This document shows positions 4,574 through 59,439 of a stretch of DNA of 64,000 nt, piece after piece. The stretch's first letter is position 1; every line of letters starts with the position of its first letter. The DNA is from a virus. The position numbers were made by a program, and so were the translations under genes. Under the pieces are notes generated by a model, which had not been told where the DNA came from, did no database searches, and saw only the letters and a program-made list of their open reading frames with translations. The stretch lies in the IMG/VR virus record IMGVR_UViG_3300030422_000020, one strand, 5' to 3'.

Positions 4574-4581
4574 ATAATTCA

Positions 4582-4615
4582 GGGAAACAGATTAACTTCT
4601 GTTTCCCTTTTTTTT
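4582..4615 (+). terminator. rho-independent terminator of the tail-fibre operon
   Basis: GGGAAACAG-attaacttc-CTGTTTCCC followed by T8. Confidence 0.75.
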
Positions 4616-4739
4616 ACGATTTTTGATTATCTTCTTTTTCAATAATGTATTTTAAATCACTGCGAATAGATTGTATTTCCTTTTGAACACTTTCTAATCT
4701 AGCCAGAATCTTTATTATTGAATCTTGTTGTAATGCCAT
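4614..4739 (-). CDS. small ORF (41 aa), MALQQDSIIKILARLESVQKEIQSIRSDLKYIIEKEDNQKS
   Basis: Hand translation. It is below the track's 60-aa cut-off. Predicted helical, uncertain. Confidence 0.2.
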   Translation of the reverse strand: MALQQDSIIKILARLESVQKEIQSIRSDLKYIIEKEDNQKS

Positions 4740-5080
4740 TGTGAACAACTCCTTTTAGATATTAATTATAGTATATAAAAAAGAGGTTCAATTAAGAACC
4801 TCAGTGAGTGTAAGGTATTGTATGTTTGAGCCTAGTTGCGTAGACTTAGCTGAAGGAAATGGACGATAGTGTTTAAGCAAATCCATAAGCAAATATGACT
4901 CAAATACATACAACATTAATATAAGGTATTGCTTAATTTAAGCAAATATAGGAAATCTTCAAACCCTTATCTATCAAGGAGTTATAATTACTTACTCGTT
5001 GTTATCTCCTAGAACTCCAAATGCAAAGCCATTATATATATTACTTTATTTATATGGCGTTTGCAAGCCTGTTTAGAAAT

Positions 5081-5160
5081 TTTACGCAAACGATACGCAA
5101 CTGATTTAAAACGTAAAAAATAAATTTGCTTAAATTTCTACGCAAATTGAATCTCTACGC
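5081..5160. repeat. five direct copies of ACGCAA(A) within 80 bp, immediately downstream of int 5197-6393
   Basis: ttACGCAAAcgatACGCAActg...tctACGCAAAttgaatctctACGCAAAtACGCAAAtaatg. The position (3' of int) is like lambda attP arm-type sites. Confidence 0.45.
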
Positions 5161-5196
5161 AAATACGCAAATAATGAATAAAAAAAAAGACTCCCA

Positions 5197-25510: not shown

Positions 25511-25731
25511 TAATACAACTCCTTTGTGATGTATTCAAACGGATAATTATTCTCTAGGCAAAACTTCTTAGCCTGTTTACGTTTGTTGAAATAATATTTC
25601 TTTTCTGGAACATAGGCTTGTGTTTCTTTTGGCTCAATGCCTAAGCACATGCCATACTTTTTTGTACTAAAAGAAATCTCTTTCTTTGTATGTTCTGGAA
25701 TCGTCACGACATAAAATGTATCTAGTTCCAT
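25510..25731 (-). CDS. hypothetical protein (73 aa)
   Basis: ORF in the array. Start codon overlaps the stop of the upstream gene. Confidence 0.35.
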   Translation of the reverse strand: MELDTFYVVTIPEHTKKEISFSTKKYGMCLGIEPKETQAYVPEKKYYFNKRKQAKKFCLENNYPFEYITKELY

Positions 25732-25925
25732 ACCGTCTCCCTATAAAGAAATAGCTGCTTAATACGCAGCTATTATTATATCACAATTATTCTTTTATAC
25801 TTCCAATATTTTTGTTACTTCCAATTGCTATTTGGAAGTAACATTTTTATTGGAATTGACCAAACTTTTAAAATCACGATTTTAAAGCTTTTTTCGTCAA
25901 CAAAACCGCAGGTCAGAGCGTTGTT

Positions 25926-26195
25926 TTATCGCACTTTCTTGTCAATTTCGTGCCATGCCGCAATATATCGGCCATCTGGCTCATTATACTGGATAGACTC
26001 GCTAAACTTATAAAGATATGCGTTAGTCGGGCTACCCATAGACACATATGCCGCTTCATTCCAGACTACACGGTCAACGAAATCAAGCGCATCCTCGGCA
26101 TGTGTGAAATAATATACTCGCTGCTCCTGCTCATACCAAGGAGTATCCTCGTCCTCGTCTGTCCACCAATCAAATACAACTTTATATATAGCCAT
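25926..26195 (-). CDS. hypothetical protein (89 aa)
   Basis: ORF in the array. Confidence 0.35.
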   Translation of the reverse strand: MAIYKVVFDWWTDEDEDTPWYEQEQRVYYFTHAEDALDFVDRVVWNEAAYVSMGSPTNAYLYKFSESIQYNEPDGRYIAAWHEIDKKVR

Positions 26196-26207
26196 ATCAA
26201 TTCCTTT

Positions 26208-26462
26208 CTATGAATCCTCTAACATCTTCAATGCGTTTGGCATCTCGGCAATGGTGTCTTCAATCACATTGCCAACCAAGCCTTCAAGCTTATTGTCAAC
26301 CATGTCCTTAAGCTTAAACTTAAACTTCTTCATCCAATAATTTTCAATTGCAGCTACGATTTGACTATACATAGTCCACTCTGGCTCATCGCAGCCTTCC
26401 ATGTGGTCAAGCGCCCAAGTGTAAATATCTTCAATGTCCTTTTCGCAACCAAGCTCCATCAT
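26208..26462 (-). CDS. hypothetical protein (84 aa)
   Basis: ORF in the array. Confidence 0.35.
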   Translation of the reverse strand: MMELGCEKDIEDIYTWALDHMEGCDEPEWTMYSQIVAAIENYWMKKFKFKLKDMVDNKLEGLVGNVIEDTIAEMPNALKMLEDS

Positions 26463-26465
26463 ATT

Positions 26466-26738
26466 CTACACCTCTTTCTTTAACCACTTACGGAACTCGC
26501 CTGAACAATCATCACATAAGTCAAGTCTATCTTCTATACTATCCCATAGGCAAAACCTATCAAACAATATACATGTATGATGATAAAACCTTTTACCTAC
26601 ATTGTATGGTACTTCCTTGCCACACCTATCGCAGATTATAGTGCTTTTCTTACTCATCATAACCATCTTCTTCATACCATTTATCCAAAACATCATTATG
26701 CTCTTCTGACATGAATGAATAAAAGGTACATGAATCAA
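26466..26738 (-). CDS. zinc-ribbon protein (probable start at the internal MMSKK, ~26660)
   Basis: CDRCGK...CDDCSGEF. Similar CxxCGK ribbon to the next ORF. Confidence 0.35.
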   Translation of the reverse strand: MIHVPFIHSCQKSIMMFWINGMKKMVMMSKKSTIICDRCGKEVPYNVGKRFYHHTCILFDRFCLWDSIEDRLDLCDDCSGEFRKWLKKEV

Positions 26739-38077: not shown

Positions 38078-39520
38078 TTAGTGTGCGGCCTTATCTGCTT
38101 CATGTAGAATCATAACACATTGCATGAAATAATCGCCCCACAATTTTAGATATTTATTATACATTTTTTCGTTGTTGTCTCTCTCCCATACGTATGGCTT
38201 CATATGATTTGAGATAAGGGCTGAAACAAATAATGCGTTAATACCAACAGGATAATCAAAGAATAAACTGTCATACGCTCCAACATGTTCGTGCGAATAA
38301 TATCTACAACGATCAATTGGTAATATTGGCGATATTTTTTTCTTAAAAACTTTATTCTCTGTAATATACGCCTTATTGTTTATTATTCTTGATACCGTTG
38401 CCGCATCTACACCAAACATATCTCCAATCTTTTTATTGGTATAACATGCATGTTCTTTAACAAATTTAATTGACTCAACTTCACCAAATGAAAGTTTACT
38501 TTGCCATTTATCAAAACCAGAAACGTTTCTATTTGGATTTGTTTGAAATGCATGATTTTGATTTTGGCTTCTTGTACACCACTCTAAGTTTTTATAAAAA
38601 TTATTTGATTTATTTGAATCAATATGATTAACATCAAGTTTCTTATATTTTTTTAAACACTCTGGTATGTCCAAAAAATGTTCTGCTACAAGTCTGTGTA
38701 TATAACAGCGCTTCTTTCTTGTTTCGCTCCCCAATGTAACGCTTAGATACCCATGTCCATTATCTCTGCCCTTTAATACCTTATTTGTTTTAATATTTTT
38801 TACATTGCCATAATTTGATATAGCATATAAATCCTCAAAATCATGTATTGGAACATAAATCTCTACGTCTTTTTCCATCCTTGTATATGGCTTTCCAACA
38901 TCGTGCAATAGTCCAGCATAATAAAGGGTATCGTTATCTTTAAGTTTGTTAGCAACAGAAACACAATGCTCACCAAGAGTTAATGTATGATGTGGATTAT
39001 CTTGGTCGTAATCCATATAACTATTAATCCACTCGTCAATATCTTTTCTTTTATCGTTCCAGTGATGAATCTCAATGTCATCCCAACCTTCAAACCAATA
39101 AGGAGTTTCCCATTGTTTATACATGCGCTCAATGACATAATCTGGTACGTACCTGTCTCTATTCGCATTATTCCTTAGACATTGCTCATATGGAGTAGCG
39201 GCAATGATACATTCTTTACGACAAGGGATGCGGTTTAGCTCTTGTAGGAAAGCAACGCGCCTTTTAGAGCTTAAATTGCAAGCATCATAGATAACATTAT
39301 TACCTTCTTTTAATGCCGTCTTGATACGCTTATGCAATTCCACAAACAGCTCATGGTTATGAGTTTGGTCGTTGATATCTAGATAAAGTTCTTCTCTTAA
39401 TGCATCTGAGCTGAATACAATATAATTATTTTCCATTGCTAGATTATAAGCAATGGTGGATTTACCACTTGCGGGTAAACCCACCATACACACTAGCACT
39501 GGCTTTGTGCTAGTGTCCAT
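38078..39520 (-). CDS. polynucleotide kinase (P-loop) + HD phosphohydrolase with an in-frame HNH endonuclease and HTH module
   Basis: Walker A GLPASGKSTIA. HD motifs NPHHTLTLGEH and LLHDVGKP, with later YSHEHVGAY and ILHEADK. Between them sit a NUMOD4-like block (ISNYGNVKNIKTNKVL), an HNH block (IHRLVAEHF...VNHIDSNKSNNFYKNLEWCTRSQNQNHA) and an HTH (KKIGDMFGVDAATVSRIINNKAY). Confidence 0.65.
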   Translation of the reverse strand: MDTSTKPVLVCMVGLPASGKSTIAYNLAMENNYIVFSSDALREELYLDINDQTHNHELFVELHKRIKTALKEGNNVIYDACNLSSKRRVAFLQELNRIPCRKECIIAATPYEQCLRNNANRDRYVPDYVIERMYKQWETPYWFEGWDDIEIHHWNDKRKDIDEWINSYMDYDQDNPHHTLTLGEHCVSVANKLKDNDTLYYAGLLHDVGKPYTRMEKDVEIYVPIHDFEDLYAISNYGNVKNIKTNKVLKGRDNGHGYLSVTLGSETRKKRCYIHRLVAEHFLDIPECLKKYKKLDVNHIDSNKSNNFYKNLEWCTRSQNQNHAFQTNPNRNVSGFDKWQSKLSFGEVESIKFVKEHACYTNKKIGDMFGVDAATVSRIINNKAYITENKVFKKKISPILPIDRCRYYSHEHVGAYDSLFFDYPVGINALFVSALISNHMKPYVWERDNNEKMYNKYLKLWGDYFMQCVMILHEADKAAH

Positions 39521-40729
39521 TTATTCACCAGCTTTAAGCAAGAATTTGCGGGAAACGTTCTTGAAACTGCGCTGTCCATCCTGACTACGATACACAAAGC
39601 CCTCGCGTAGACACTTCTTATTGATTACACTCTTGCCATCAGCAGACTGCTTGAACTCCTCAAAGTCATCAGCATCGGGCAAGATATAGTTATCATCAAT
39701 AATAGGCACGAATGGAATATCGTACTCGGCTAGAATCTTCTTTGCTTCGACAGAACCAAGGCGCTCTCCGTCAAAGATTAAATTGAAGGCGGCAAATCGG
39801 CGCTCATCAAGCTTGTACTTGTTGCCCTGTACGGACTCACCATACGTCTCACCCTGTAGTACAACATGCTTATGGTTGCGCTTCTTTGCAATGTCCTTAA
39901 GAGCATCCTCGACATTGTATTTGAATGCCATTTCCCAGTAAACGTTTCCGATGCCAGACATATCAGAAACAAAGTTCTTCTGATCTGCATCCATCTGGCG
40001 AACATTACGTGAACACACACCGAAATCAGGCTTACGACCAGTCAAATCAAGGAAGAATGTAGTCGAAGTGCCATCAATCTTCTCGGTCACGACATAAGGA
40101 TTCTTATCCTCAAGCATGAACATGACATTCTCAATGCGGTCTTCATCCGTCTTCTTAATCCACACAGGCCAGTTCTTAGGATTATCCTTCTTGCGACCAA
40201 AGAAAACGAACAGCAACTTGCGACCCCATGCACGCTTCATCAGCCACTTCCACCACTTCTTCTTTGCGAGCTTGGTATTACGTGCGCACATATTATTGTA
40301 CTTGGCATTGGGATTAGAATTAGCCTTACGAGCATTATCCTCGGCTACATAATACTTAATACCAAGCAGATTTGTCACGTCCTCGTGGATAGCATACTCC
40401 TTATTATCTGGAAGAATGCTCATCGGAAGAAGCAAACCCTGCGAAACTACATTAAACTTTCCGAGCTTATAGGTCTTTACCTTAAACTTCTTTGGGCGCA
40501 AAAACTCAGACCACTCTGTCTCTGGTAGCAAAGAATCAATCTCAAAGAAGACAGCCATGTCGCCAGCATTAAACTCATGCTTGCGAATAATTACGTTCCA
40601 ACCTCCAACATGAGCAAGCTCAATGTTATCAGCCTTTTCAATTGGCGTGATACTATCAACTGTTACAGTATATGCAAGCATACGCTCGCCGTTTTTGTCT
40701 AGCATATCGAACCTTTCTACTATGCTCAA
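39521..40729 (-). CDS. putative ATP-dependent RNA ligase
   Basis: Nucleotidyltransferase motif I VVTEKIDGTSTTFF (KxDG), a later VVLQGETYGESVQG block, and adjacency to the Pnk/HD gene. Confidence 0.5.
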   Translation of the reverse strand: MSIVERFDMLDKNGERMLAYTVTVDSITPIEKADNIELAHVGGWNVIIRKHEFNAGDMAVFFEIDSLLPETEWSEFLRPKKFKVKTYKLGKFNVVSQGLLLPMSILPDNKEYAIHEDVTNLLGIKYYVAEDNARKANSNPNAKYNNMCARNTKLAKKKWWKWLMKRAWGRKLLFVFFGRKKDNPKNWPVWIKKTDEDRIENVMFMLEDKNPYVVTEKIDGTSTTFFLDLTGRKPDFGVCSRNVRQMDADQKNFVSDMSGIGNVYWEMAFKYNVEDALKDIAKKRNHKHVVLQGETYGESVQGNKYKLDERRFAAFNLIFDGERLGSVEAKKILAEYDIPFVPIIDDNYILPDADDFEEFKQSADGKSVINKKCLREGFVYRSQDGQRSFKNVSRKFLLKAGE

Positions 40730-45395: not shown

Positions 45396-45427
45396 AAAAA
45401 CCACTGCCAATAGGGGCAGGTATTATA

Positions 45428-45519
45428 TGGCGGGGCAACTGGCATTCGAAGCCAATACTTGATGAACAAGTACGTTCTGATTAGCAGTCAGACCTAACTC
45501 CCCGTTAGTTGTCTGCCCC
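45428..45519 (-). tRNA. tRNA-Ser(GCU), type II with long variable arm
   Basis: Acceptor GGGGCAG/TTGCCCC with an encoded CCA. Anticodon arm TCTGA-CTGCTAA-TCAGA. Variable hairpin ACTTG-TTCAT-CAAGT. T arm TTGGC-TTCGAAT-GCCAG. Confidence 0.6.
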
Positions 45520-45731
45520 GAAGGTGGGGTGCGTTACCAACTACACCACATGTCTTTTGTAAAATAACATAATCATAAGTACATGGCTACTTATTTTCCG
45601 TCTATACTGAGACACGTCTGGATTCGAACCAGAGACAGTTTCGCCATTATCATCCATGAGAATCTGGCTTTATCGTGATTATATCCACGCCCCCATTGTT
45701 ATATAATGTCAACTATGACAAGAAAAAATCA

Positions 45732-45807
45732 TGGAGCCGATGACAGGACTTGAACCTGCAACAGACTGATTACAAATCAGTTACTCTTCCAATTGAGTCA
45801 CATCGGC
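45732..45807 (-). tRNA. tRNA-Thr(UGU)
   Basis: GCCGATG tg ACTC aattggaa GAGT a ACTGA-TTTGTAA-TCAGT ctgtt GCAGG-TTCAAGT-CCTGT CATCGGC t CCA. Confidence 0.8.
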
Positions 45808-45826
45808 AATTGTACAATTGATTGTG

Positions 45827-45900
45827 TGCGCCATGTAGGATTCGAACCTACGGCCTACAGATTAGAAGTCTGTTACTCTATCCAGCTGAGTTAATGGCGC
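45827..45900 (-). tRNA. tRNA-Arg(UCU)
   Basis: GCGCCAT / ATGGCGC acceptor. Anticodon arm ACAGA-CTTCTAA-TCTGT. T arm GTAGG-TTCGAAT-CCTAC. Confidence 0.8.
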
Positions 45901-45951
45901 ACACAATCAATTGTTATATATAAAAGATATTATACCATATCTTGATATATC

Positions 45952-46036
45952 TGGTAGGGAAGAAGGGATTCGAACCCTCACGCTCTATGAGCAAGAGATT
46001 TTAAGTCTCCGATGTCTGCCATTCCATCACTTCCCC
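45952..46036 (-). tRNA. tRNA-Leu(UAA), type II
   Basis: Acceptor GGGGAAG/CTTCCCT + A + CCA. Anticodon arm GGAGA-CTTAAAA-TCTCT. Long variable arm. T arm GAGGG-TTCGAAT-CCCTT. Confidence 0.7.
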
Positions 46037-46042
46037 GAGTTT

Positions 46043-46117
46043 TGGTATCGGCTACGGGAATCGAACCCGTGTTTCCACCTTGAAAGGGTGATGTCCTAAC
46101 CGTTAGACGAAGCCGAC
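46043..46117 (-). tRNA. tRNA-Glu(UUC)
   Basis: Acceptor GTCGGCT/AGCCGAT + A + CCA. Anticodon arm TCACC-CTTTCAA-GGTGG. T arm ACGGG-TTCGATT-CCCGT. Confidence 0.75.
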
Positions 46118-46208
46118 ATTTGGTGCCGCATCTAGGTAACGCTCCTAGCCAGTCATAGACATTGGATTTACAGTCCAACCCTCGTCTTTAAAGGATTACT
46201 GCGGCAAT

Positions 46209-46285
46209 TGGTGGACACAGTAGGATTTGAACCTACGACCTTATGCGTGTAAAGCATCTGCGCTAACCAGCTGCGCCATGCGTCC
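46209..46285 (-). tRNA. tRNA-Val(UAC)
   Basis: Acceptor GGACGCA/TGTGTCC + A + CCA. D arm GCGC-agctggtta-GCGC. Anticodon loop TTTACAC. T arm GTAGG-TTCAAAT-CCTAC. Confidence 0.75.
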
Positions 46286-46286
46286 G

Positions 46287-46362
46287 TGGTGGAGTCGGTG
46301 AGAATCGAACCCACGACCTTGGGATTAAAAGTCCCCTGCTCTTCCGACTGAGCTACGACTCC
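46287..46362 (-). tRNA. tRNA-Lys(UUU)
   Basis: Acceptor GGAGTCG/CGACTCC + A + CCA. D arm GCTC-agtcggaa-GAGC. Anticodon loop CTTTTAA. T arm GTGGG-TTCGATT-CTCAC. Confidence 0.8.
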
Positions 46363-46366
46363 ATTA

Positions 46367-46441
46367 TGGTGGGGGATGAGTGAGTTGAACACTCTTCTAG
46401 AGCTTATAAGGCCCTTGCCCTAACCGTTGTGCGAATCCCCC
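46367..46441 (-). tRNA. tRNA-Ile(UAU) (AUA reader)
   Basis: Acceptor GGGGGAT/ATCCCCC + A + CCA. Anticodon arm AGGGC-CTTATAA-GCTCT. T arm GAGTG-TTCAACT-CACTC. One D-stem mismatch. Confidence 0.6.
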
Positions 46442-46472
46442 ATAGCCATTATAATAGACGGTAACGTTCCAT

Positions 46473-46553
46473 TGGCAGTGGCAAGATTTGAACTTGCATA
46501 CAGGAGCTACCTGTTTTGCCCATTAAAGCATAGCGTATACCGATTTCGCCACA
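46473..46553 (-). pseudogene. tRNA-like element (type II architecture) with a disrupted anticodon arm
   Basis: Good acceptor (GGCGGTG/CACTGCC), T arm GCAAG-TTCAAAT-CTTGC and variable-arm hairpin CAGG-TAGCT-CCTG. No 5-bp anticodon stem can be drawn in ATGCTTTAATGGGCAAAA. Confidence 0.3.
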
Positions 46554-46559
46554 CCGCCA

Positions 46560-47950
46560 AGTCACATTACCGTCTATGGAATATATACTTTTCAAGCATG
46601 GTCTATATGCTCTTATCGAGTACGATGACATCTCAAAAGAAGAGCAAATTGAACGACTACTCGACTCTGGCCTGCCCATTCTGTCGATGACAGATTCTGG
46701 AAATAAATCTGTTCATACCATACAACAACACGCAATGATAATATATACTCCATAGACGGTGGTAGCTTACTAAAGTCCTCACCAGCTACCAGAGGGGTCA
46801 CTTATTTTAAATACCGTCCGCGCTGGCAGACCTTCCAACGCTACCGATTTTACGCAACGGTGTACGCTTAACAGTCCGCTTCCTCCGTTAAGACAAGGGG
46901 TAACATTACGCCGTTACCATGCGCCCAAGACTTGTCAGGTAGCTATCTCCATCGTAAACCTTGGGACTGAGCGTTGACGGAAAATGAAAACGTAAGTCAA
47001 ATAACTCACACGCAAGGAACAACCGTTAAACCAAAACAGAAAGGAGTCAAAACATTTTCCGTCTACGGAATCGTACCGTACCATCTGCGTTAGTGAAATC
47101 AACCAAAAGACTAACACAGAATCGAACCTCGCTTTGTCGGTCAAGCAAACCAACGCGAAAGATTGTCTCAGGCCTTCGCCTTACCTTCATAAAACGTAGT
47201 GGTAATTCGGTAACATAGGAAATGGAGCTGAGACACAGGGAGCGACCCCATATCTTTCCATCCCGACTTTACGTCAATCTATGGCTGGATTGGCTACCAA
47301 CAACTTTCACCCACCATTCAGCATATTAATCTTCTAATACAATCCAACTTTGGGCTACTCGTACTCGCGTCTGGTCTTATAGCTGATTACCAGCATCAAT
47401 TGGACAACTATCTTATGGCACTCCAAGCGATTGGCATAGCTGCCACACTACCCTCTACTTGGTTCAATGGAATATATTCCATATCTATTGCGATAGCAAC
47501 CAGTTAGCGATACCATTTTCTTGCGTTTCATCACAGCGCCGTGTCTGCTCGGTTGAGATTTTCCACCTCTTCTACCAGAAGCCAGTTACCTACATCTGGC
47601 AAAGCCTACCTATGGGGTATCCTCCATAGTGGGACTCCTCGAACACGCCCATGACCACGTGGAGTCGTGAATACACATGGTTGAAACAATCCTTCGCGTT
47701 GATTTCTCAACGCTGATACTCTATGTAAATATCAAGGTGCAACTGGAAACTTCCGTTTCTCTGTGTCAGATATTATAGCATCTAACTTTATCAGTTGCAA
47801 GAACTTTTTTGAACTTTTTCCATCTTCTTTTCTCAAGGTGCTCATCAGATTGATCTGCGATTTGTCCGCGTCTCTTTCTGACATCAACTATATTACATGG
47901 TGCCTATATCTATGTCAACAACTTTTTAGAAAATTTTGAAAACTTTTTTC
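46560..47950. ncRNA. candidate large structured non-coding RNA region (~1.4 kb, ORF-free, GC-elevated) adjacent to the tRNA array
   Basis: No ORF over 72 aa on either strand. Composition is visibly more G+C-rich than the flanks. Long-range complementary segments are present (ACCGTCTATGGA 46569-46580 pairs with TCCATAGACGGT 46749-46760), along with tRNA-T-arm-like GAATCGAACC at 47120. Confidence 0.3.
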
Positions 47951-47987
47951 GTAGCAGTCCGCATTGCATCAGCGGACTAAATATGTA

Positions 47988-48329
47988 TCAACAAACATAA
48001 GCAATGATATTATAGCAGATATTTGCAATGGTAAAAAATATAGAACACCTAAAATCTTCCGTCAATTTAAACTGCACATCACAAACGCTGTCAAAAGAGA
48101 AATTTGAAATAGTAGTTTTAAAGCGATCATTCCGTCTGATTATCACTCTATCGTCCTCTAGAGAAGCTGTGACATTTTTTTCAGAAGACCTTAAAATAAA
48201 TGTATATGGTCTTGCTATATATGTATCTATACTTACCGATTCAAACTCTATCTTGTCTTCGAGAACACGTTTAAGCTCGGTCTTATCGCCATTGGAAAAT
48301 CCGTATTTACTATAGTCGAACATATGCAA
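47988..48329 (-). CDS. hypothetical protein (113 aa)
   Basis: ORF followed by the hairpin CAGTCCGC..GCGGACT at 47940-47975. Confidence 0.4.
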   Translation of the reverse strand: MHMFDYSKYGFSNGDKTELKRVLEDKIEFESVSIDTYIARPYTFILRSSEKNVTASLEDDRVIIRRNDRFKTTISNFSFDSVCDVQFKLTEDFRCSIFFTIANICYNIIAYVC

Positions 48330-48438
48330 ATGCTCCTCTCAAGAAGTGTGTTGTGAAATATTTAGAATATAGCAATACTTCACAACACTAAGATATTAGC
48401 ACCAAACCATATCATTTGCATCATATAAAATATTCCAT

Positions 48439-49683: not shown

Positions 49684-50493
49684 TTAAATAAAATCATAAC
49701 CAAGCTCAAGACTGTCGAACACGTCTTTGATTTCATCATCCATAATGCCGATGTATTTTCGTGTAGTAGCTACGCTGCTATGATTGAACACATAGCTTAG
49801 AATGACAAGCGCCTTATCCTTATCTTCCGCATCGTGCCATGCCCTAAAGCCGAATGATTTCCTCAAGGAATGGCTACCGATATTCTGGTTAATCCCAGCT
49901 TCCTTAGCTGCGTTCTTGATAATACGCCAAAGAGTAGTAGCTGCAATAGCGCCGTCACCCTCACGGGATTTAAACATATACTCGTTTAAATTATCCGCAG
50001 GGAACTCATTAAGGTGCTCTACAATAACTTTCTTCACGGTGTTATTAAAGAACAACTTGACAAACTTCTTCTGCTTACGTGTTTTTTTAGGTTGCAAAGT
50101 ATAGAAGTCCTTAAACTTATACTCCCCGTCCTCAACACCGTCCAAGAAGAAACTCCATTTAAGCGTAATCAAATCGCTTGCACGCAGACCGACATTGATA
50201 CCAATAACGAACAGCAGCTTGTTCCGACTGGCAAGCTGACGATGGTGTTCATCGGTAGCTTCATTGATATGCTTGTCAAACACATCAATCATAGACTTAA
50301 TCTCTTCATCGGTACGGAAAGCATACACCTCAGAAGATACACCAGCAGGCTTTAATCCACCGCTATTATCACGAGCCTTCGGACTTTTAGGCTTAACATC
50401 TTTAGTGCCAATGATAACACTAAACGGAATGATATTGTTCTGCTGCTTTTCTTCCACAACAACTGGCGCAAATGCTGGACTAGCCATTATCAA
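49684..50493 (-). CDS. small tyrosine recombinase (catalytic domain only, 269 aa)
   Basis: GINVGLRASDLITLKW (box I Arg), GSHSLRKSFGF (H-x-x-R) and HSSVATTRKYIG (the catalytic Tyr region). Confidence 0.7.
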   Translation of the reverse strand: MIMASPAFAPVVVEEKQQNNIIPFSVIIGTKDVKPKSPKARDNSGGLKPAGVSSEVYAFRTDEEIKSMIDVFDKHINEATDEHHRQLASRNKLLFVIGINVGLRASDLITLKWSFFLDGVEDGEYKFKDFYTLQPKKTRKQKKFVKLFFNNTVKKVIVEHLNEFPADNLNEYMFKSREGDGAIAATTLWRIIKNAAKEAGINQNIGSHSLRKSFGFRAWHDAEDKDKALVILSYVFNHSSVATTRKYIGIMDDEIKDVFDSLELGYDFI

Positions 50494-57761: not shown

Positions 57762-57886
57762 TAGACTATCCCTTCTGTTGGCGTTCTCTTTCCTTGTCTA
57801 TAGAATACCATAATATGTTGTCGTTCACATTATCTTCACATATTATATTGAATCAATAAAGACGGTATTGCTATAGCATTGATTGT

Positions 57887-58105
57887 TTACAAGTCAACAA
57901 TCAAATTGTGTTCTTTGATAAGCCGCCTTGCAATGCAAGGGTTAATATGCTTCTTTTTCGCCAGCACGATAGTACCGCTGCCGTCCTCGCGCTTATAGAT
58001 ACAGTGGTCGCCAGTACACCGCACATAGGCATACCCATTGCGCTTGACAATCTTAGTCATCTCTAGGTAGGTGTACTGCCGCATTTTCGCCATTGCTTTT
58101 CCCAA
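57887..58105 (-). CDS. HicA-family toxin-like protein (72 aa)
   Basis: YTYLEMTKIVKRNGYAYVRCTGDHCIYKREDGSGTIVLAKKKHINPCIARRLIKEHNL matches the HicA pattern (..GfelvrqkGSHhvy.hpdg...tvP.H...dl..g.lrkIlkq). Confidence 0.55.
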   Translation of the reverse strand: MGKAMAKMRQYTYLEMTKIVKRNGYAYVRCTGDHCIYKREDGSGTIVLAKKKHINPCIARRLIKEHNLIVDL

Positions 58106-58195
58106 TCTCTAGTGGTCTTTGACTTGATATAAATATATCATATACTGTTGTATATAGTGGTAATTCATATAATCTACACATATATATTGACAAAG

Positions 58196-58218
58196 AAAAA
58201 GGCGGTATCACTACCGCC
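58196..58218 (-). terminator. rho-independent terminator
   Basis: GGCGGTA-tcac-TACCGCC with an A-run. Confidence 0.55.
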
Positions 58219-58510
58219 TTAATCTCTGCTAGGCTACCATGATAATATCGAATTGCTCAATACCATCAAGAAGATACCAATCACATGCGTCATATAAAGC
58301 CTTCACGTCCTCGGGTGCATCGCCCCAAGTGCCACTATAGACCTCCTTGCCGCTCACGTAGGCAATAACCTTCTGCTCGTCTTGAATATCCATCTTCTTA
58401 CCTTTCTGCTGTTATCAACCCATCGGGCTTATCCCCTTTGGTTGATATTATTATTGCACTGATAGAGTCTATGAGTATCGAGAATCTTTAACTTCACAAA
58501 GTCTACACAT

Positions 58511-58540
58511 ATCAATGGTCAAAAAAAAGACCGCCTAAAT
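58511..58540 (-). terminator. rho-independent terminator
   Basis: A8 followed by GACCGCC-taaatata-GGCGGTC. Confidence 0.65.
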
Positions 58541-58555
58541 ATAGGCGGTCTAGTC

Positions 58556-58798
58556 TTAGCAAAAGTCATATAGGGTAAACATAAACGCCGCTGCTTCTCT
58601 GTCGCTAGAGATAACATCGCCACGATACTTCACGAACTCGCACACAAAATCTCTATGCTCCTTCAAAAAATCATCAAATGCGTCTGTAGCTTCTCGCTGT
58701 CCCGCCACTTCGCTACCGTTCCTGCTTGCATCATAGAGAAAATCGTAGTTATCATCAAACCTCTTGAGAAAATCGTCAATGTTAAAATTGAAAACCAT
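58556..58798 (-). CDS. hypothetical protein (80 aa)
   Basis: Bounded by a promoter motif and a terminator. Confidence 0.4.
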   Translation of the reverse strand: MVFNFNIDDFLKRFDDNYDFLYDASRNGSEVAGQREATDAFDDFLKEHRDFVCEFVKYRGDVISSDREAAAFMFTLYDFC

Positions 58799-58873
58799 TG
58801 TTCAGCCTTTCTTCTGGTTTCCTTTGTTGATTAAAGGATACCATAGTTTTGCCGTGTTCACGTTATCTTCACA

Positions 58874-58904
58874 TATATACACGCAAAAATAAAGCCCACC
58901 TTTT
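58874..58904 (-). terminator. rho-independent terminator
   Basis: AGCCCACC-ttttgc-GGTGGGCT with an A-run. Confidence 0.6.
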
Positions 58905-58919
58905 GCGGTGGGCTTGTCG

Positions 58920-59168
58920 CTATCCCCTATAGTCTAACTTGACAACGCAACTTGAGTGACCATCACGTTGCACATATGCGTCAGGCTCAATAGCGCGTAC
59001 CTCACAATTGTCAAGCCACGGGCGCTTTTGCACCATATCAAACGGGTAGTCCTCAATCGTGAGCGGCGCTTTATCTATGGCATAGACAATTACGTTGACC
59101 ATGCCGCCCCAAACACTCCGCAAATCTTTGAATAACATTTGTACCACCTTTCGTTTGGTTTCTTTCAT
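58920..59168 (-). CDS. hypothetical protein (82 aa)
   Basis: Bounded by a promoter motif and a terminator. Copy 1 of the 110-bp element lies upstream. Confidence 0.4.
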   Translation of the reverse strand: MKETKRKVVQMLFKDLRSVWGGMVNVIVYAIDKAPLTIEDYPFDMVQKRPWLDNCEVRAIEPDAYVQRDGHSSCVVKLDYRG

Positions 59169-59228
59169 TGATTAAATAGTACCACGGTTTACTCGTCTCC
59201 ATAGTATCTTCACATAACTATATCTAGA

Positions 59229-59340
59229 CAAAAGTTTCTAGTAGCTAACTTTAAAATAGGCATAACTGTAGCTCAATAAATAAGTCATTATGAGTGGCGT
59301 ATGTTGGTCGCTTTGTCCTCCCGACTAGTTATATAATACC
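59229..59340. repeat. 110-bp conserved intergenic element, copy 1
   Basis: About 75% identical to 61057-61170 (aaaagtt..tagctaactttaaaa..aactgtag..taagtcat.at..gtgg..tatgtt.g...ctttgtcc.cccgact..tta.at). Confidence 0.5.
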
Positions 59341-59439
59341 ATAGTTTTAGGTTGTGAGATTGTGATTCCCAGATTCATAAGTTCTTCACAAATGAATACA
59401 CAAAAGAAAAGCGCCCACCTTTTCAGTGAGCGCCAGAAT

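Follow-up and report, generated by a model that had tools for sequence, protein, structure and literature searches.

ROOL RNAs are typically encoded by phages and prophages, often beside islands of tRNA genes, and can match 16S rRNA in abundance (PMC12286853, PMC5737381). For ROOL env-120, flat protomers were shown to assemble into a protein-free octameric nanocage of D4 symmetry, ~280 Å wide with a disordered linker inside; a biological role of ROOL has not been established in the literature (PMC12286853). Here we analyse a gene-free region of about 1.4 kb in the viral record IMGVR_UViG_3300030422_000020, and find that it very probably forms the front end of a minus-strand non-coding transcription unit of an uncultured human-gut phage, made up of promoters, a ROOL RNA, a structured companion RNA related to the RAGATH-36 family, a long hairpin and tRNAs. 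Coordinates are positions in the 64-kb window, the whole stretch of DNA that was analysed, and the RNA module and the tRNAs all lie on its minus strand. To our knowledge, just one other natural RNA besides ROOL is known to form closed protein-free cages. The RAGATH series was defined by nearness to genes associated with twister and hammerhead ribozymes; RAGATH-36 (RF03104) is listed in Rfam as a candidate small RNA with a model of 128 nt, and our literature search found no mention of it.

Scanning the whole window with Rfam 15 at curated thresholds returned, besides tRNAs, one strong match: a full-length ROOL RNA (RF03087) at 47151-47704 on the minus strand, which scored 293.3 bits against a gathering score of 99.1 (E = 2.6e-66) and spanned model positions 1-574 of 574 without truncation. 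The cmscan alignment tracked the consensus structure with few non-canonical pairs, and the closing stem coincided with an inverted repeat, I1, of 24 nt and 88% complementarity (47147-47170 / 47682-47705). Phage-type genes surround the RNA, eight same-strand tRNA genes lie downstream of it and its relatives are IMG/VR viral contigs. The ROOL gene of the window is a further copy of the known family, and its setting is just what would be expected. Given its family membership and the published structures, we infer that it would fold and self-assemble into a D4 octameric RNA-only nanocage. An earlier reading of the DNA letters, here called the sequence-only reading, had proposed an ornate non-coding RNA of the GOLLD or ROOL type beside phage tRNAs, and the full-length RF03087 match bears this proposal out. 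The other models that it had named (GOLLD, HEARO, group II intron and RNase P) gave no match at E ≤ 1 across 46100-48400 or at E ≤ 10 across 46555-47160, and, RAGATH-36 apart, tmRNA and the remaining Rfam families gave no further match at permissive E-values in the same two intervals. Plus-strand ‘Plastid-ycf2’ Rfam matches were antisense to tRNAs and were disregarded.

ROOL accounts for only ~550 of the 1,400 nt. The sequence-only reading had envisaged one large RNA gene; a large structured non-coding RNA is indeed present, but the 1.4 kb turned out to be a composite of promoters, ROOL, a second RNA of 410 nt and a long hairpin. Likewise, the T-arm-like and CCGTCTAYGG motifs to which it had drawn attention exist, but are parts of the 410-nt RNA and the hairpin, not of ROOL: the T-arm-like GAATCGAACC was found at 47119-47128, and CCGTCTA(C/T)GGAAT stands at 46570 and 47059 and, inverted, at 46750. 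Allowing at most one mismatch, CCGTCTAYGG occurs eight times in the window against 2.5 ± 1.5 expected (none of 100 shuffles reached eight), and three exact copies fall within the ~500 nt of 46570-47068. The long-range complementary segments are real and comprise the ROOL closing stem and the inverted repeats I3 and I4 (46972-46986 / 47053-47067 for the latter). The region directly abuts the tRNA genes, as had been stated: ARAGORN placed eight on the minus strand at 45732-46559. Two compositional claims held with qualifications. With ORFs counted from 80 codons upwards, no stretch of the window longer than 1 kb lacks an ORF apart from 46691-47987 and the neighbouring tRNA array (45398-46426), as claimed; at a cut-off of at least 100 codons, however, two more appear (25511-26714 and 57762-59361), and the first pair fuses into one gap of 2,590 nt, the largest of the window. 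The elevated G+C content applies to ROOL and the companion RNA (0.46, ~2 standard deviations over the mean) and is modest for the region overall (0.432 against a window mean of 0.393, with 14% of equal-sized windows as high); the promoter part has 0.36.

The 410-nt companion RNA (46741-47150, minus strand) abuts the ROOL 3′ end without a spacer. The 591 nt between ROOL and the first tRNA have a predicted folding energy of −190 kcal/mol, with z = −3.9 against shuffles. Near the 5′ end of the companion stands a first T-loop-like motif, GGUUCGAUU (47128-47120); the plus-strand GAATCGAACC is the reverse complement of the T-loop-like GGUUCGAUUC, which is kept in all relatives and in canonical RAGATH-36 loci. 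There follow P0 (47120-47111 / 47093-47084), in which six pairs are changed on both sides, and the T-arm-like hairpin P1 (47080-47064), whose ACGG/CCGU pairing becomes GCGG/CCGC in three sequences. P2 (47063-47053 / 46986-46976) encloses a conserved insert that carries CUCCUUUCU (47046-47038), and the P1/P2 junction is itself the third copy of CCGTCTAYGG (47059-47071). The linker AACGCUCAG (46975-46967) leads to P3 (46965-46956 / 46933-46924), with three double-sided pairs, and P4 (46918-46899), with one, GGUAAC/GUUACC being replaced by GGUGGC/GUCACC. Three further hairpins (46892-46867, 46861-46843 and 46841-46820, the last with three covarying pairs) precede a 3′ helix (46791-46784 / 46767-46760) that covaries and is homologous to a helix of the canonical loci.

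Covariation was measured in a 23-sequence alignment (A5) on a curated structure of 11 helices and 82 pairs, and compared with 500 shuffles and with controls in which the pairing partner was slid by 1-3 columns. Pairs changed on both sides numbered 18, against 7.1 ± 1.4 in the shuffles (0 of 500 reached 18) and 1-4 with slid partners, so that the region does contain the covariation-supported structure that the sequence-only reading had looked to. Paired cells reached 98.4% in the curated structure, 96.2% in the shuffles and 35-46% with slid partners, although this figure and the slid control are inflated because the structure was partly chosen from a subset of the same alignment; the counts of double-sided changes are less affected. 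RNAalifold on an 11-sequence alignment mis-predicted the 3′ half and missed hairpins with three compensatory pairs, and its result was superseded by an unbiased enumeration of helices together with the curated structure.

Two sequence features of the companion stand out within this fold. CUCCUUUCU is almost invariant, being altered in few of the 23 distinct sequences, and is identical to the 3′ tail of Firmicute-type 16S rRNA that acts as anti-Shine-Dalgarno sequence. On the plus strand the complementary GAAAGGAG has no start codon after it, so it is not the ribosome-binding site of a hidden gene. CUCCUUUCU might base-pair with GGAGG (46885-46881) or, in trans, with Shine-Dalgarno sequences. 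Two T-loop-type U-N-C-G-A motifs, UUCGA and UACGA, are also conserved, ~45 nt apart.

The segment 46897-47083 matched RAGATH-36 with 35.7 bits (E = 4.9e-5 when 2.3 kb were searched and 1.3e-5 when 606 nt were), its second stem being enlarged by an insertion of 75 nt; four canonical loci scanned with Rfam scored 103-151 bits. Because the companion fails the Rfam threshold, we call it a relative, not a member, of RF03104. Both have a near-identical 5′ hairpin, UGGUACGGUACGAUUCCGU, followed by the P2 stem and an AACGCUYAG linker, and cmscan posterior probabilities were at their maximum over the hairpin UGGYACGGUACGAUUCCGU, the P2 stem and AACGCUYAG. Also shared are a P3 stem with internal loops, which aligns poorly to the Rfam model, and the terminal P4 hairpin. 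The likeness extends outside that model: the window and all canonical lineages examined have in common an upstream GCGAGGUUCGAU motif with the P0 hairpin, and a 3′ domain of the form AGUG-N3-CCU..[helix]..UGGAG..GGUNAA[helix′] is shared with canonical loci as well. The companion differs in its conserved 66-75-nt P2 insert, which includes CUCCUUUCU, in the three hairpins at 46892-46820, for which there is no clear canonical counterpart, and in its fusion to ROOL; canonical loci lie near RAGATH-4, RAGATH-16, small ORFs or tRNAs, not ROOL.

Canonical loci are conserved far past the 128-nt model. Upstream they carry AAGCGAGGUUCGAU and then a covarying hairpin; downstream, ~200 nt are conserved, including AAGUGGAGGAAAUGCUGCC and AAAGUGCAUCCUUGGAAGNUGGAG...GGUAAAACUUCCYCCC. 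An nhmmer profile for which only canonical loci were used matched 47139-46959 in a search of the whole window (E = 5.6e-13), so that the T-arm-like GGUUCGAUUC falls within the 5′ extension common to both. On the 3′ side, AGUGACCCCUC-[UGGUAGC]-UGGUGAGG...AGUAA-[GCUACCA]-CCGUCUA of the window element aligns with canonical AGUGCAUCCUU-[helix]-UGGAG...GGUNAA-[helix′], an equivalence judged partly by eye and with no calibrated model. This helix covaries among lineages (GGAAGU/ACUUCC, GGGGGAU/AUCCCUC, UGCAGA/UCUGCA and GAGGU/ACCUC, with UGGUAGC/GCUACCA in the window), the CCGUCU tail recurs in loci L069 and L036, and no other Rfam family matched the 3′ extension. MAFFT/RNAalifold on the canonical extended elements was blurred by variable inserts and gave 25 pairs only. 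RAGATH-36 is part of a larger RNA of 300-400 nt, about a third of which is covered by the Rfam model. The window carries a full-length but diverged member of this extended RAGATH-36 superfamily, a grouping proposed here and absent from Rfam, whose element has about 320 consensus positions. The companion RNA is a modestly novel variant of a barely described family that is linked to tRNA arrays.

A conserved ORF of ~38 codons (MVWHFGIHGIFEIRRYGFGGVYLIIGETWFTLKRGSMP, then stop) was seen at ten canonical loci (L007, L008, L012, L020, L034, L046, L059, L064, L068 and L114). It lies within ~110 nt upstream of the RAGATH-36 hairpin and ends inside the 5′ motif GCGAGGUUCGAUGCCGUAA, its start being cut off in L064. 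The ORF is confined to one large canonical subclade, in which RAGATH-4 and RAGATH-16 occur 1.8-2.6 kb upstream; other lineages keep the RNA motif without it.

The 15-mer ACGGTACGATTCCGT from the hairpin was found at 115 loci in IMG/VR viral contigs, which were sorted by their flanks into ~36 canonical RAGATH-36 loci and ten window-like loci, nine of them distinct; about half of the 115 belonged to an unrelated coding gene or had arisen by chance. One order is common to all nine distinct window-like loci, with a ROOL RNA (199-314 bits), the RAGATH-36-like motif ~70 nt further on and, after another 400-600 nt, an odd tRNA of 86-88 nt followed by ordinary tRNAs (9/9). A profile of the post-ROOL element detected it in full in 14 viral-collection sequences and, after one metagenome scan, at 31 loci. 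These represent 24 distinct versions, 79-100% identical to the window, and the element always starts at the ROOL 3′ end. In one of these loci, L244/L009 (71-kb contig ERZ779866 NODE-166), it does not differ from that of the window. The strand and order of the module parts are common to all relatives. Metagenome matches with a named source came from human-gut assemblies, blastn of 46440-48000 in distant mode found no match among GenBank phages, and the RNA ligase of this phage is at most 31% identical to anything there. On these comparisons, the clade of uncultured human-gut phages seems to have no close cultured relative. The viral matches of a 19-mer, GATGGAGATAGCTACCTGA (L221 and L222), proved to be chance occurrences in GC-rich coding DNA; those in the genome_contigs collection (L223-L225, including a Firmicutes metagenome-assembled genome contig) gave no profile match, and no host was assigned from them.

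From the ROOL side, 113 loci with the ROOL pattern were sampled. Only 11 had a RAGATH-36-type core, ~240 nt downstream of the pattern, and all of these belong to the present clade, so the fusion of ROOL and companion is clade-specific. In several other ROOL loci a same-strand tRNA begins 15-50 nt past the ROOL 3′ end. The tightness of the junction raises the possibility that ROOL and the 410-nt RNA stay joined in one composite of ~960 nt, a cage protomer with a tethered accessory domain, which we consider conceivable but on balance doubtful. There is no spacer, the ROOL closing stem ending at 47147-47151 and the first pairing of the companion beginning at 47149; the junction sequence is unchanged in all relatives; neither a tRNA nor a terminator intervenes; and GOLLD offers a precedent, as tRNAs can be housed within that RNA (PMC12286853). 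Against a permanent union, 102 of the 113 ROOL loci have no companion, so ROOL does not need it, and canonical RAGATH-36-type elements occur without ROOL. Taken together, the two distributions point to each RNA being an autonomous module.

Downstream of the companion, a long hairpin (46569-46760, minus strand) is closed by the ACCGUCUAUGGAGUAUAUA / UAUAUAUUCCAUAGACGGU stem, the I3 repeat at 46569-46587 / 46742-46760 (19 bp, 95% complementary). This stem is invariant in all relatives, and the predicted fold is a single long hairpin. Its tip measures 154 nt in the window and ~30-70 nt in most relatives, being longest in the window and L009; it varies in sequence too, with a non-triplet indel relative to L115 (a 73-column gap). 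An alternative pairing, I5, joins the 3′ arm (46564-46577) to 46454-46467 and encloses the odd tRNA. It is present in most relatives, but its arm is missing in L049, so that only the I3 pairing is universal. A 59-codon ORF on the opposite (plus) strand inside the hairpin (46576-46755) was rejected as a gene or gene remnant: it has no Pfam match, its frame is broken by the L115 indel, and it is probably spurious. In L083 (10369-11151), a tandem duplication comprises the variable hairpin and the 5′ half of the odd tRNA, joined at GTCTATGGAGTATATAT, suggesting that the CCGTCTATGG repeats are recombination-prone.

The tRNA array opens with this odd type-II tRNA (46472-46559, minus strand), reported by ARAGORN as ‘tRNA-?(Leu|Ile)(aa)’ and scoring 40.5 bits with the Rfam tRNA model. 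Its anticodon arm of 16 nt is one short of the standard, and the loop can be drawn with 6 nt (UUAAUG) or with 8 nt (UUUAAUGG). Covariation is seen in the acceptor, T and anticodon stems (for instance UGCU/GGCA against CGGA/UCCG in L049), while the loop is invariant. A recent origin by copying of the phage tRNA-Leu(UAA) is not supported, the two being identical at 48 of 88 positions, no better than with other tRNAs. The odd tRNA might shift the reading frame or read quadruplets, or it might be a tRNA-like signal for processing that takes no part in decoding.

This arrangement could also mean that 46569-47150 is a structured precursor spacer or cis-element for the processing or stability of the downstream tRNAs, not a trans-acting RNA, acting for instance by offering entry sites to RNase III or RNase P, or by alternative pairings that expose or hide the odd tRNA. 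The hairpin 3′ arm can indeed pair either within the hairpin (46569-46587 with 46742-46760) or across the odd tRNA (46564-46577 with 46454-46467), the 19-bp stem would make a plausible RNase III substrate, and six of the 36 canonical RAGATH-36 loci, from about five lineages, end directly against a same-strand tRNA. We regard such a purely cis-acting role as rather unlikely. An RNA of ~400 nt with more than ten helices and many invariant unpaired nucleotides exceeds the needs of known processing signals, the I5 pairing is absent in L049, and many canonical loci lie 1.8-3 kb from any tRNA (~16 more of the 36 have a tRNA array 1.8-3.1 kb downstream) or precede a protein gene.

Upstream of ROOL, a consensus scan identified two tandem promoter candidates of the sigma-70 type on the minus strand, each preceded by an A-tract. 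The upstream one, TTGACA-17-TAATAT at 47890-47918, follows AAAAAAGTT and has both hexamers invariant in 7/7 aligned relatives. The proximal one, TTGCAA-17-TGcTATAAT with an extended −10 (47772-47800), is preceded by a near-identical AAAAAAGTT A-tract; among the seven relatives its −10 is invariant and its −35 is one base off in L083 only. It would leave a leader of ~60 nt before the ROOL start. The segment 47705-47990 has a mean column identity of 88% in the seven relatives, and the promoter hexamers and A-tracts are essentially unchanged even in L018 and L083, whose farther-upstream DNA is unrelated. This conservation lends indirect support to the idea that ROOL may be expressed here as a stable, abundant RNA. 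Read from the sequence, a terminator-like hairpin without a U-tract, AGUCCGC-loop-GCGGACU (47955-47978, minus strand), sits just past the stop codon of the upstream ORF 47988-48329; it is kept in five of seven relatives, with an altered loop in L049. Scanning revealed no convincing intrinsic terminator between ROOL and the tRNAs, the terminator-like matches there being companion hairpins in a number not above chance, and neither scan nor inspection gave the tRNA array a convincing −35/−10 pair of its own within the long hairpin. The extended −10 of the proximal promoter at 47769-47780, the 12-mer GATATTATAGCA (TGCTATAATATC on the minus strand), recurs exactly at 48006-48017, within the 3′ end of ORF 47988-48329; this second copy may be a third promoter or the remnant of a promoter duplication.

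The A-tract repeats of the AACTTTTT family (47802-47948), the inverted repeats, the L083 duplication at GTCTATGGAGTATATAT and a nearby tyrosine recombinase gene (49684-50493) would suit an element acting at the DNA level, such as a replication origin or a packaging or recombination site. We judge this very improbable: cumulative GC skew has no turning point here, the A-tracts stand directly upstream of two conserved −35 boxes, like UP elements, and RNA families with covariation account for most of the region. That the gap holds a decayed protein gene or small unannotated genes is scarcely credible, for although ORFs of 59-87 codons arise mechanically (for instance 46576-46755 on the plus strand), the substitutions are compensatory in base pairing and not third-codon-position changes, indels are non-triplet, there is no Pfam match and two Rfam RNA families match.

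We therefore return to the reading of the region as the front end of a non-coding transcription unit. In the arrangement proposed, tandem promoters (47918-47890 and 47800-47772) would drive a ~60-nt leader, ROOL (47704-47151) and the companion RNA (47150-46741), and the transcript would continue through the long hairpin (46760-46569) and the non-canonical tRNA into seven ordinary tRNAs. The order of the parts suggests that the whole unit would be made as a single precursor, to be cut by RNase P and RNase Z, with RNase III perhaps acting at the long stem. On this reading, ROOL would act here as a cage-forming RNA that is produced along with the tRNAs of the phage. Our best guess is that the module serves the phage tRNA supply or translation during infection, because the coupling to tRNAs is constant, the companion has two T-loop motifs and genes of the RNA-repair type lie 6-8 kb away.

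Several points weigh against this interpretation. The companion RNA falls below the RAGATH-36 gathering score (35.7 against 70 bits). Its curated structure was, as stated, drawn in part from the alignment on which it was scored, and with relatives that are 79-100% identical several helices never vary. The region holds 7 promoter-like sites against 7.4 expected, with no excess over chance, so that the promoters are supported by their position and conservation. Cage formation by this very sequence is extrapolated from family membership, co-transcription, transcript ends and processing sites are deduced from the arrangement, and the proposed link to tRNA function draws on motif resemblance and gene order.

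Beyond the odd tRNA, the array comprises seven canonical tRNAs found by ARAGORN and Rfam (Ile-UAU, Lys, Val, Glu, Leu-UAA, Arg and Thr; 45732-46441, minus strand). The 91-nt spacer between tRNA-Glu and tRNA-Val (46118-46208) contains a cryptic tRNA-like element of 85 nt on the same strand, GCCGCAG...UGCGGC-ACCA, with an anticodon-type arm UUGGA-CUGUAAA-UCCAA (GUA, Tyr-type) and a T-arm CUAGG-AGCGUUA-CCUAG. It lacks the canonical D-loop GG and T-loop sequences and was missed by ARAGORN and Rfam; it is nearly invariant in ~20 related loci with differing flanks.

Among the protein genes of the window, 38078-39520 and 39521-40729 (both minus strand, 6-8 kb from the module) encode a P-loop kinase/HD protein beside an RNA ligase (PF09414). 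In the 480-residue protein, a P-loop kinase (AAA_33) is joined to an HD phosphohydrolase domain, the latter apparently interrupted by an in-frame NUMOD4 and HNH module. Such a pairing is known from phage tRNA repair, and by analogy the two genes look like an RNA (tRNA) repair pair. The tyrosine recombinase gene (minus strand, Phage_integrase E = 2.4e-14), which is found 2 kb upstream of the RNA module, raises the possibility of a temperate phage; one genome-collection scan found no prophage copy. Three other sparsely coding stretches were noted in the window: 4574-5196, without an ORF of at least 60 codons, where the coding strand and the sign of the GC skew both switch; 57814-58555, without an ORF of at least 80 codons; and 25511-26714, without one of at least 100. 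No Rfam family matched any of them at threshold.

Another ROOL copy beside phage tRNAs is expected and adds little. The useful part is the clade-wide fusion of ROOL to a covariation-supported RNA, apparently sharing its promoters with an odd tRNA and a tRNA array, since it provides a naturally occurring construct that ties a candidate cargo or adaptor genetically to the cage. A more far-reaching possibility, which motif resemblance and gene order lead us to raise while thinking it unlikely, is that the companion is a tethered or co-produced adaptor. Its T-loops would dock the tRNA elbow, CUCCUUUCU would mimic the anti-Shine-Dalgarno tail, and tRNAs or ribosomal or mRNA partners would thereby be held at or inside the ROOL cage; that the tRNAs concerned would be the phage's own, including the two non-canonical ones, is equally speculative. 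If true, this would provide the first concrete, testable handle on the cargo of ROOL cages. In a more modest form, large RNAs of 300-400 nt built around RAGATH-36 would make up a third class at phage tRNA arrays, beside ROOL and GOLLD.

Compared with the ROOL family, the window RNA shows no real difference in ROOL itself: it matches the full covariance model, its ~554 nt are close to the family mean of 581, it has the long closing stem, and it is phage-encoded upstream of a tRNA island on the tRNA strand. Its internal variable linker is short. What sets the locus apart from other ROOLs is the context, the 3′ end being fused to a 410-nt RAGATH-36-like RNA. MALAT1-mascRNA offers a distant parallel, in which a large non-coding RNA is followed by a tRNA or tRNA-like structure on one transcript: there RNase P cuts the tRNA-like structure and frees the long non-coding RNA upstream. 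RNase P could potentially set a 3′ end here as well, but the first true tRNA lies ~590 nt downstream of ROOL. For the companion RNA, a parallel is seen in the paired, interdigitated T-loops of T-box Stem I, the RNase P specificity domain and the ribosomal L1 stalk, which dock the tRNA elbow (PMC4810234). Two T-loop motifs and a setting among tRNA genes are shared; the likeness is one of sequence motifs only, the loops of the known cases standing in other sequence contexts. Since known paired T-loops dock the elbow, tRNA binding by the companion RNA is a reasonable guess from these motifs. GOLLD (RF01998) is likewise a large ornate RNA of phages and prophages that lies beside tRNA arrays, can have tRNAs physically embedded in it and forms an RNA-only nanocage (PMC12286853). 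It differs from the RNA described here in its fold and its 14-meric assembly, and gave no match at E ≤ 1 across 46100-48400.

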